From a virus (taxonomy: Duplodnaviria; Heunggongvirae; Uroviricota; Caudoviricetes), in IMG/VR virus record IMGVR_UViG_2695420897_000008: a stretch of DNA of 39,495 bases. One strand, given 5' to 3'. This document shows positions 35,719 through 39,495 of this stretch, piece after piece (position 1 is the first letter of the stretch; every line of letters starts with the position of its first letter). Below the pieces are notes generated by a model. It was not told the origin of the DNA, searched no databases, and worked only from the letters and a program-made list of their open reading frames with translations. The translations under genes and the position numbers were made by a program.

Positions 35719-36348
35719 TCACTCAGGAATCTTAATCTTTCTCAATTCTTTATTTAGTTCACAGATCTTTTTCTTAGACGGGAAAGTATCATACATCCAA
35801 AAACCAACAGTCTCTAAAACTATTATCATAACCATATACACAAGATAATTTAAAAGGCCTTCATTTTGCCCTATGGAAATAATGCAGATAATAGAAAAAA
35901 GGGTAAACAGCACAAAACACAGAAAGGAAAACAGACGACTAATAATAAATAAAAAACCTGAAAAATCAACATTAATAAAAAACACTCCGTTATCTTTCTC
36001 TATATAATTCTGAAGCTTAATCAACTGATTTATATACTGTCTTTTTTCTAATCTATTGCAAATGTAAATAACATCTCTTCGGTTATAAGATGATTGCAAT
36101 TTCAGCGCATCACGAATAATTTTATCATTTATTCTTTTTTCTATGGCACTCTTATCCTCCTCATCCAGATAACGTTCATACTTAACTAAATATAAAATTA
36201 ACTTCTTAACATATTTAGGCTCTTTATACTTATAATTAAAAATGATCTTTCTTATCCAGACTCCCATAACAATCAAACATGAAAAAATATATCCAGCTAT
36301 TTTCTCCAGATGCTCTGTATGGTCAATCAAGTATTGGATCATATGCAT
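35719..36348 (-). CDS. Hypothetical integral membrane protein, 209 aa, very AT-rich, opposite strand to the surrounding operon
   Basis: Three predicted TM segments; strong compositional contrast with flanking genes. Confidence 0.55.
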   Translation of the reverse strand: MHMIQYLIDHTEHLEKIAGYIFSCLIVMGVWIRKIIFNYKYKEPKYVKKLILYLVKYERYLDEEDKSAIEKRINDKIIRDALKLQSSYNRRDVIYICNRLEKRQYINQLIKLQNYIEKDNGVFFINVDFSGFLFIISRLFSFLCFVLFTLFSIICIISIGQNEGLLNYLVYMVMIIVLETVGFWMYDTFPSKKKICELNKELRKIKIPE

Positions 36349-38458: not shown

Positions 38459-38522
38459 TATAACTCACCTTATCGAGCTATGGCGACATGCTGAATTCGA
38501 GTAAATTAAAGGAACAATACTT

Positions 38523-39284
38523 ATGCAGGAACTAACTGAAATGCCGATCACCTATCCATACCCGAGAGAAACTTTTCCTGACTTTTTGAGGGAGTGTGGG
38601 TTCACCAATTTTTCCCACGAACAGCGTGAGACTTGTGACTGCTATCGTTTAACGAATGGCGTAATTGTTAACCTTTACACCACCCGGACCATTCAGTTTC
38701 AAGGTAACCCTCAAGAACGTCCCAATGTTGAAACTGCAATAATGACCCATTTAGGAACGCCGCCCACGGCAACACCACTAGCCGTAGAACAGCCATCTGA
38801 GCTCCCCAAAAAGATATTCATTGTTCACGGCCATGACCATACTGCAAAGGAGCAACTTGAGCTAATCCTTCATAAACTTGGATTACCAGACCATTTCATT
38901 TTGCAGAATACGGGAGGGACTGGACTCACCATTATTGAAGAGCTTGAACGTGAAATTGGGCAAGGACAAACTGCTACCCGTTTCGGGATTGTTCTTTTGA
39001 CACCTGATGATATGGGATACTCAAAGCGCGCCGGTGAAGCAGAAATCCAACCCCGCGCAAGACAGAACGTTGTACTCGAGATGGGTATGCTTCTTTCGTC
39101 CTTAGGGCGCAGCAATGTAGCAATCCTTCAGAAACAGCACCTAGAACAGCCTTCTGATGCTAACGGGATTTTGTATCTGAATTTCAACGACCATGTACGT
39201 GAAACAGTTCCTCGTCTAGTGCAACGGTTACAAAATTCTGGTTTCGAATTTACACAAGCTCAAATAGCTAACGCTTCCTCGTAA
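38523..39284 (+). CDS. Protein with C-terminal TIR-like nucleotide-binding domain (COG4271/PF10137-like) and an N-terminal domain of unknown function
   Basis: Motifs KIFIVHGHD, VLLTPDD and RARQNVVLEMG match the TIR-like family as remembered; AAAGGA RBS; followed by a terminator. Confidence 0.55.
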   Translation: MQELTEMPITYPYPRETFPDFLRECGFTNFSHEQRETCDCYRLTNGVIVNLYTTRTIQFQGNPQERPNVETAIMTHLGTPPTATPLAVEQPSELPKKIFIVHGHDHTAKEQLELILHKLGLPDHFILQNTGGTGLTIIEELEREIGQGQTATRFGIVLLTPDDMGYSKRAGEAEIQPRARQNVVLEMGMLLSSLGRSNVAILQKQHLEQPSDANGILYLNFNDHVRETVPRLVQRLQNSGFEFTQAQIANASS

Positions 39285-39307
39285 TTACCCCTTATTGTTG
39301 ATTACAA

Positions 39308-39328
39308 CCCTGCATCGCGGGGTTTTTT
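39308..39328 (+). terminator. Rho-independent terminator after the TIR-like gene
   Basis: CCCTGC-ATC-GCGGGG hairpin followed by TTTTTT. Confidence 0.55.
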
Positions 39329-39411
39329 ATTTGGGAATAAAAACCCTATGTCATTTAAATACCGGGACAGTCCGCTTTATTGTAAGCGACTCGTCAGAAC
39401 CGTATTGATAT

Positions 39412-39495
39412 TTACTGAGAGCTCAGATCAACTTTCCAGGGCAACAGATCGCGTACCCGGTTTGCCGGCCAGTCCTGGATATGTTCAATGACGTA
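39412..39495 (-). CDS. 3' end of an unidentified minus-strand gene running off the window (...YVIEHIQDWPANRVRDLLPWKVDLSSQ)
   Basis: Open frame from the window edge to TAA at 39412-39414; identity not recognised. Confidence 0.3.
   Translation of the reverse strand, partial: YVIEHIQDWPANRVRDLLPWKVDLSSQ

Follow-up and report, generated by a model that had tools for sequence, protein, structure and literature searches.

What does a gene for a TIR-domain protein do in the replication region of a temperate phage: does it act against other phages, against the immunity of the host, or in neither way? The question is raised by an open reading frame (ORF) at positions 38523-39284 of the IMG/VR virus record IMGVR_UViG_2695420897_000008, a stretch of 39,495 nucleotides that we call the window. 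The window is a segment of an Escherichia coli chromosome with a temperate phage of ~40 kb integrated beside yfhL. An original prediction, made from the sequence without database searches, had recognised a TIR-like C-terminal part in the product and offered two roles, a single-gene anti-phage effector or a counter-defence protein that binds or degrades signalling nucleotides. We favour the first, and consider that the gene is probably a one-protein module for abortive infection or superinfection defence, complete in itself, which a temperate BPP-1/YeP4-type E. coli phage carries as cargo. We favour it because the protein matches the catalogued family PDC-S35 over its full length, its active site is conserved, the gene is mobile cargo in slots that elsewhere contain SIR2, Mrr and DUF4145 genes, and its N-terminal domain also occurs in a dCTP-deaminase (deoxycytidine triphosphate deaminase) defence protein.

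The ORF was confirmed as a real gene, with the following parts and flanking signals.

38523-39284, + strand: ORF of the TIR gene, ATG to stop, 253 aa, laid out as TBP-like domain, linker and TIR domain
38509-38513, + strand: ribosome-binding site AAGGA, 9 nt 5' of the ATG, read from the sequence
38544-38756, + strand: N-terminal domain, residues 8-78, TBP-like fold of the RNase H3 N-domain / RnlA NTD-NRD type
38757-38810, + strand: disordered linker, residues 79-96, with predicted local distance difference test (pLDDT) values <50 for residues 80-92 and with length and sequence that vary in the family alignment
38811-39281, + strand: TIR domain, residues 97-253, with the PF10137 match at 97-222
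39060-39080, + strand: codons of R180-Q-N182-V-V-L-E186, the Arg and Asn of the nicotinamide adenine dinucleotide (NAD) pocket and the catalytic Glu on helix alpha-C
39150-39158, + strand: codons of P210-S211-D212, D212 being aligned to D110 of SfSTING
39306-39331, + strand: terminator-like hairpin followed by a T-run, with an 8-bp stem of 5 G-C pairs, 22 nt past the stop, found by pattern scan

The folding energy of the hairpin is -13.6 kcal/mol (z = -1.33), unexceptional by energy alone. Its DNA sequence recurs with 100% identity in five listed E. coli genomes, FDAARGOS_1059 among them, for the TIR gene. The gene itself, its TIR annotation and a predicted defence role were already known; RefSeq labels the identical protein 'TIR domain-containing protein', and phrog_16442, the group to which the gene is assigned, is without a known function.

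The motifs FIVHGHD, LLTPDD and RARQNV, which had suggested a TIR-like fold, are present at residues 99-105, 158-163 and 178-183. The original prediction had also proposed profile searches against PF10137 and defence databases, and both gave matches. PF10137 ('CAP12/Pycsar effector protein, TIR domain') matched residues 97-222 with E=2.9e-31 and 108.4 bits against a gathering cut-off of 24.7; the match covers profile positions 1-118 of 119 and goes far beyond what chance would give. Affiliation of the domain with the TIR-like effectors of CBASS and Pycsar thus holds, whereas that with Thoeris does not, the domain being distinct from the ThsB TIR (PF08937). The C-terminal domain, taken earlier to be ~130 aa, is ~157 aa long (residues 97-253). 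When a profile of 63 family members was compared with solved structures, chains of Cap12 (TIR-STING) and PycTIR alone were matched, and the top nine PDB matches of the AlphaFold2 (AF2) model in Foldseek were all TIR-STING structures (9lmq, 9lmr, 7un8).

In the alignment with SfSTING, R180-Q-N182-V-V-L-E186 pairs with R-D-N-V-V-F-E (of 'RDNVVFEFG') and P210-S-D212 with P-T-D, so that R180, N182, E186 and D212 align to R78, N80, E84 and D110. The spacing R-x-N-x-x-x-E, followed 26 residues later by the Asp, leaves no ambiguity in these assignments. Cryo-electron microscopy of SfSTING assigned R78 and N80 to the pocket and catalysis to E84, with D110 from the opposite TIR completing the active site (PMC9402430). 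R180, E186 and D212 do not vary among the 63 family members (alignment A1), and the conservation of N182 is at least 90%. The characterised members of PF10137 are NAD-depleting effectors (Pfam description; the NCBIfam Cap12 entries read 'NAD(+) hydrolase'). These alignments argue for a TIR domain that is an active NAD+ glycohydrolase dependent on TIR-TIR assembly, and the conserved active-site residues speak against a degenerate 'nucleotide-binding' module. That family label, used by the original prediction, had to be given up, since PF10137 is the NADase effector of Cap12 and PycTIR and not their nucleotide-binding part.

In PADLOC, the protein matched PDC-S35 (PDLC05003) as a single gene with E=6.8e-109, residues 10-253 aligning to profile positions 3-245 of 245. 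It is therefore a full-length match and a member of that catalogued family, which was nominated because its members occur within BREX, DISARM or type I restriction-modification loci (Payne et al., 10.1101/2024.01.29.577857). Our literature search found no mention of PDC-S35, of the RefSeq/GenBank accessions or of TIR together with RNase HIII, and no described fold of the PDC-S35 N-domain, trigger or mechanism.

The gene lies in the following segment, which we compared with the same junction in related phages.

38459-39347, + strand: accessory cassette of 889 bp, from the stop of the DNA polymerase gene to the start of the ANR-family gene

In the related phages YeP4 and BPP-1, ANR or VRR-NUC genes come directly after the polymerase, the ANR homologue of YeP4 starting 4 nt after the polymerase gene; neither phage has a TIR gene at this junction. 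On this comparison the segment 38459-39347 is an insertion, accessory to the phage backbone. Its GC content is ~42-48%, against ~55% in the polymerase gene. Relatives of the TIR protein occur in 4 of 50,697 phage records, compared with 1,474 records for the related polymerase, and the family comprises >2,700 protein clusters overall. The gene was found in 47 of 5,426 complete E. coli genomes, always as one chromosomal copy. Prophages of Serratia and Providencia carry proteins of the same clade (63-87% identical) in the same slot after the polymerase, and a Salmonella relative has its TIR gene in another slot, between the single-stranded DNA (ssDNA)-binding protein and the polymerase. The variable slots of this prophage lineage further hold a SIR2 protein matching PDC-S25 (E=4e-158), an Mrr-type nuclease (Mrr_cat) and DUF4145. 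In E. coli ECONIH2, a sister prophage at the yfhL site bears a diverged TIR allele, and the slot between its ssDNA-binding protein and polymerase contains the 500-aa SIR2 protein (L022:5010-6512); the replication module of this prophage thus bears two candidate NAD-targeting genes. Such defence-type variable slots in a BPP-1/YeP4-type replication module are new to this work. The small ANR gene was considered as a dedicated partner of the TIR gene and was ruled out, being a phage backbone gene that is present without a TIR gene in YeP4; the ANR proteins of YeP4 and the E. coli prophage are 58% identical.

The setting of the cassette also corrects a premise of the original prediction, which had placed the gene last in an early operon. 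The prophage region is 99.8-100% identical to the prophages of IAI1 and FDAARGOS_1059 and 97% identical to phage vB_EcoM-606R2. Its replication module is of the BPP-1 / YeP4 / APSE type, with polymerases 64-73% identical. On the + strand, genes for a LexA-like repressor, a hypothetical protein, a DUF2800 nuclease, an Enc34-type ssDNA-binding protein and a family-A DNA polymerase precede the TIR gene, a minus-strand gene of 28% GC lying between the last two. In the intact prophages, the same strand continues past the TIR gene with a small ANR-family gene, a hypothetical gene, VRR-NUC, an SNF2-type helicase, a helix-turn-helix gene and the integrase, with a minus-strand gene between VRR-NUC and the helicase; this continuation through the integrase is seen in IAI1, FDAARGOS_1059 and vB_EcoM-606R2. 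The alignment of the window with the intact prophages ends at 39382, near the end of the window, where two further features were found.

39348-39382, + strand: first 35 nt of the ANR-family small gene, cut by an insertion sequence (IS) after ~11 codons; the alignment diverges past 39382
39383-39495, strand not assigned: terminal 113 nt of an IS66-family insertion sequence, beginning GTAAGCG...; the window ends inside it

The window looks cut short only because the IS66-family element inserted at 39383 and the window ends in it. In phage PPwrbA_EC3734, the same IS end adjoins ORFs matching DDE_Tnp_IS66 (E=2.5e-103), TnpB_IS66 and HTH_Tnp_1, that is, TnpC, TnpB and TnpA. A query that included 39383-39495 gave 6,826 matches in 2,163 E. 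coli genomes, nearly all by this stretch alone, and at least 80% of the query was present in only 36 genomes. In the window the IS cuts the ANR gene, and the annotations of IAI1 and FDAARGOS_1059 mark it as frameshifted; this backbone gene thus appears to have been inactivated more than once.

Beyond the E. coli prophages, a scan of one genome per species found the TIR family in 237 genomes of many phyla, in a patchy distribution that is typical of horizontally moving defence genes. Contexts besides the enterobacterial prophages include a Vibrio cholerae integrative element with a relaxase, two conjugative elements, and an integrase-adjacent array with the family gene beside Mrr and toxin-antitoxin genes; the neighbouring genes vary from one context to the next. 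In Vreelandella, a DUF4062 protein and an RVT_1 reverse transcriptase come after the TIR homologue, and then ParDE and Phd-YoeB toxin-antitoxin pairs (L024:7863-10622); this locus is a compact defence island.

The N-terminal ~105 aa had been called unrecognised. They comprise a folded domain of 70 aa (residues 8-78) and the linker (79-96), and the domain is recognisable by its fold, a helix, a four-stranded antiparallel sheet and a helix. The closest structural neighbours belong to the RNase H3 N-terminal / RnlA NTD-NRD group, and the best matches are to the hybrid-binding domain of RNase H3, which binds RNA-DNA hybrids (PMC3710099, PMC8266594). The RnlA_toxin profile matched the window protein with E=0.018-0.098 (13-16 bits), below the 27-bit cut-off; the best score of any family member was E=9.4e-5, and DUF3378 was matched by 3 of 31 members. 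The fold, joined with this weak sequence signal, makes a kinship to the TBP-like domains of RNase H3 and RnlA probable.

The domain evolves faster than the TIR domain. Mean identity to the window protein is 32% for the N-domain and 74% for the TIR domain, and the two E. coli prophage alleles (the window and ECONIH2) are 46% and 89% identical in these parts. It is also found with other partners. A profile search of 1.84 billion representatives with the N-domain gave 908 matches, and among the best 150 of these the domain was joined to TIR in 33, to the kinase-deaminase body of dCTP deaminases in 5, to a ~90-aa module of no known type in at least 10, and to DUF1653 in 2, the remaining 90 being too short to classify. 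P0187 (617 aa, L110:3956-5809) matched both the PADLOC dCTPase profile (E=7e-173) and the N-part of PDC-S35 (E=1e-12). In this protein and in P0202, P0158, P0241 and P0244, the TBP-like domain stands in place of the first ~140 positions of the dCTPase profile. P0187 directly follows a DEAD/MZB helicase gene on a short contig that ends just past the gene and is uninformative on RNase HI. Ten proteins of ~150-165 aa (P0170, P0216, P0256, P0186, P0173, P0263, P0268, P0190, P0168 and P0218) consist of the N-domain and the common ~90-aa C-terminal module, and P0189 and P0258 of the N-domain and DUF1653; both kinds may be further effectors or adaptors. The PDC-S35 family in turn mixes differing N-domains: three of its five hidden Markov models match the TIR half alone, which indicates that other N-domains too are combined with this TIR.

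The occurrence of one N-domain in TIR and dCTP-deaminase proteins points to a shared sensing or regulatory module. Its faster evolution and its modular reuse with other effectors likewise suggest that it is a sensor or regulatory module, as judged from sequence comparison. The identity of this domain and its reuse with other effectors, including dCTP deaminase, are new here, as is the linkage to RNase HI described below.

A mechanism can be proposed on this basis. Before any infection cue was engaged, the fast-evolving TBP-like domain would restrain the protein; its engagement of such a cue would bring TIR domains together. The C-terminal TIR would then act as an NAD+ glycohydrolase whose active site is completed by TIR-TIR packing, with D212 supplied in trans. 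NAD+ would be depleted, and the infected lysogen would cease to support the incoming phage. As to the cue, hybrids or RNase HI are suggested by the fold, which resembles RNase H3, and by the linkage to RNase HI. Our guess is accordingly an RNA-DNA-hybrid-related signal or RNase HI itself, with a phage structural or replication protein, as in SpbK, about equally likely.

Several observations weigh against a defence role of this kind. A scan of the + strand upstream of the gene for the sigma-70 promoter consensus found none, and a relaxed scan of seven orthologous upstream regions gave weak matches only, unconserved among the regions. The gene is co-oriented with the replication genes, and this, with no recognisable promoter, leaves expression in the lysogen unproven; the product might appear only in lytic growth. 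PDC-S35 is a computational nomination and thus a candidate only. The PDC families are stated to be unproven by their authors and later users, and DefensePredictor left them out as unvalidated. The N-domain is near-neutral or acidic, with a net charge of about -0.6, and of -4 in the window protein by our own count of the sequence, so that simple nucleic-acid binding by this domain is unsupported by charge. A generic sensor of RNA-DNA hybrids would also risk self-activation by host or prophage replication. Finally, the AF2 model gives per-block pLDDT values of 54-88 in the strongly conserved TIR half, which is moderate, against ~90 or above in the poorly conserved N-domain; a shallow alignment of closely related sequences, or a TIR domain ordered only when assembled, are possible reasons.

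The neighbourhood of the gene was compared by clustering all ORFs in the best 80 of the 237 loci, which have 44-68% identity. RNase HI was the sole recurrent neighbour, present in 12 of the 80. In 11 it lies immediately downstream, its start coinciding with the end of the TIR gene or overlapping it (L035:4732-5253, L089, L098, L109, L088, L096, L094, L101, L100, L076 and L077), and in one, L093, upstream; an RNase HI gene also accompanies the TIR copy of a conjugative element (L029:7756-8280). The carriers include Chloroflexota, Verrucomicrobiota, Vicinamibacterales and Hymenobacter. The neighbour is a full-length gene and scores E=3e-50 to E. coli RNase HI, and in our own reading of an example its catalytic DEDD residues are intact. 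Other recurrent neighbour 'ORFs' in the 80 loci were rejected as antisense artefacts within the TIR gene.

This linkage fits the literature on RnlA: the activation of that toxin after T4 infection depends on RNase HI, which is found associated with its TBP-like NRD (PMC5308261). It raises the alternative that the protein is half of a two-component system, in which the N-domain binds RNase HI (here the host rnhA product) or the TIR domain acts on, or is templated by, RNA-DNA hybrids. The activity might then be tied to replication intermediates and not to a phage protein, and the substrate would perhaps not be free NAD+. The structural matches of the N-domain to the hybrid-binding domain of RNase H3 agree with such a system, as do the recurrent gene pair and the RnlA precedent. 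On the other side, 68 of the 80 loci and the window are without an adjacent RNase HI gene, the N-domain is not basic, the RnlA-RNase HI pull-downs have been criticised over their controls (PMC8266594), and the conserved pocket residues are the NAD+-binding ones of SfSTING. We regard this alternative as the strongest of those considered, and as rather doubtful.

A broader proposal from the same evidence is that the TBP-like N-domain, as a homologue of the RnlA NRD, is a widespread portable immune sensor working through RNase HI or RNA-DNA hybrids and gating at least three unrelated suicide effectors, a TIR NADase, a dCTP deaminase and a HEPN RNase. About 15% of the scanned TIR loci would bring their own RNase HI gene, placed after the TIR gene, and the E. 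coli prophage protein would use the host rnhA. The sensor would fire when phage replication or host shut-off altered the hybrid load or the availability of RNase HI. We put this forward tentatively, as an unlikely proposal, and as the considerably more interesting one if true.

Partner genes of other kinds bear on a further alternative, that the protein generates a signal like Thoeris ThsB, an adenosine diphosphate ribose (ADPR)-derived messenger whose effector would be encoded at another place in the genome. Signal production is known from some bacterial TIRs (10.64898/2025.12.03.692087), and the pairwise conservation of this TIR domain, 74%, is unusually high. A PADLOC scan of the 43 window ORFs, however, found no CD-NTase, PycC, ThsA or other signalling partner, as the original prediction had noted for a cyclase or partner, and the genes downstream in the intact prophages, inspected for partners beyond the window, include no cyclase. 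Nor did neighbour clustering of the 80 loci give a recurrent cyclase, ThsA, SLOG, Macro or other receptor gene, or a conserved antitoxin-like partner; there is thus no universal partner gene. Moreover, the characterised members of PF10137 deplete NAD, and a gene travelling by itself on mobile elements cannot depend on an unlinked effector. A signal-generating role is consequently very unlikely. Membership of CBASS or Pycsar was likewise ruled out, with no STING or cyclic nucleoside monophosphate (cNMP) domain in the protein and no cyclase in the window ORFs, downstream in the intact prophage or in the 80 loci, and so was membership of Thoeris, with no PF08937 match to the protein and no ThsA in the window.

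Early-region accessory slots of phages may carry anti-defence genes too, and the TIR gene shares its strand with the replication genes, while no promoter specific to it could be recognised. Both points agree with the counter-defence role offered by the original prediction, in which an early phage protein would bind or destroy immune nucleotides (cyclic ADPR isomers, cyclic oligonucleotides) or pre-empt NAD-based immunity. This guess was weakened when its last-gene premise proved wrong, and specific support for it was not found. PF10137 is the NAD-cleaving and not the ligand-binding part of Cap12 and PycTIR, and all four NADase active-site residues are kept. The family is overwhelmingly cargo of bacteria and mobile elements beside restriction and toxin-antitoxin genes, phage records with it are very rare, and the genes in the nearby slots are of defence type, not anti-defence. 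Searched against the BFVD viral folds, the N-domain had no match with E<=0.001. We see little chance that the gene serves counter-defence.

The idea that the gene is a replication accessory factor or a prophage-maintenance (addiction) toxin, and not an anti-phage gene, draws on its place right after the polymerase in E. coli, Serratia and Providencia prophages, and is the least credible of all, given that close relatives with the same replication module are without it, the Salmonella relative has it in another slot, the family occurs in elements without phage replication genes, and the 80 loci show no conserved antitoxin-like partner.

Some other observations concern the rest of the window. 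The minus-strand ORF at 35719-36348 (209 aa, ~28% GC), between the genes of the ssDNA-binding protein and the polymerase, seems from its sequence to be hydrophobic and membrane-like, and it matched nothing in Pfam and PADLOC searches. Related prophages have SIR2 (PDC-S25), Mrr_cat, DUF4145 or Nmad5 in that slot, which makes the ORF a candidate gene for superinfection exclusion or defence, of unclassifiable type. At the other end, a host segment at 1128-6041 (a 648-nt hypothetical gene, yfhH/murR, yfhb, tadA and the 3' part of mltF) has the opposite orientation to its counterpart in E. coli IAI1, to which it is 98.8% identical; one breakpoint falls within mltF, and a C-terminal tail-fibre fragment (Gp53-like_C) lies at 148-549. 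The inversion and this fragment represent a rearrangement at the tail-fibre end of the prophage.

If active, the TIR gene would be a compact, 762-bp, one-protein NAD-depletion immunity gene moved among strains by temperate phages of Enterobacteriaceae, with a bearing on the host range of phages in therapy and on prophage-mediated superinfection exclusion. PDC-S35 gains a concrete domain model. The analysis also brings out a TBP-like domain, small and fast-evolving, that occurs with several effectors and has ties to RNase HI both in genomic context and in the RnlA literature; through this link, RnlA-type infection sensing and its need for RNase HI become testable in a simpler system.

Among known systems, CBASS Cap12 (TIR-STING) and Pycsar PycTIR resemble the window protein in their PF10137 TIR domain, which also gave the best solved-structure matches, and in the conserved NAD pocket and in-trans Asp. 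They differ in that the window protein has neither a STING nor a cNMP sensor domain and no cyclase gene, and carries instead a TBP-like domain N-terminal to the TIR. The NCBIfam Cap12 models accordingly scored 34.8 and 30.5 bits against a cut-off of 450, over the TIR part only, with nothing C-terminal to the TIR.

The nearest likeness in overall design, compared by architecture alone, is SpbK of ICEBs1 in Bacillus subtilis, which is also the functional precedent for the mechanism that we propose. SpbK has 267 aa, with an N-domain of ~90 aa, a linker and a TIR domain whose catalytic residue is E192; its NADase activity is triggered when the N-domain, as the sensor, binds YonE, the portal protein of phage SPbeta, and it is proposed to cause abortive infection through a depletion of NAD+ that oligomerisation drives (PMC11984713). 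Both are single genes on a mobile element, encode ~250-270 aa with the order N-domain, linker and C-terminal TIR, and have comparable catalytic residues (E192 and E186). The host of SpbK belongs to another phylum, and a PADLOC search of the window protein gave no match to an SpbK model at E<=1.

At its sensor end, the window protein is instead like the anti-phage toxins RnlA/LsoA (RNase LS) and RNase H3. It differs from them in its effector, a TIR domain and not a HEPN RNase or RNase H, and in having one TBP-like domain, not two; from RnlA/LsoA it differs further in that no RnlB- or Dmd-like antitoxin gene accompanies it. Tal et al. reportedly described dCTP-deaminase anti-phage defence proteins in 2022 (Nat Microbiol). 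Proteins of this type (PADLOC 'dCTPase') would deplete dCTP where the TIR protein would deplete NAD+, and the PADLOC profile has other first ~140 positions, yet some of them, such as P0187, begin with the same N-domain as the protein of the E. coli prophage.

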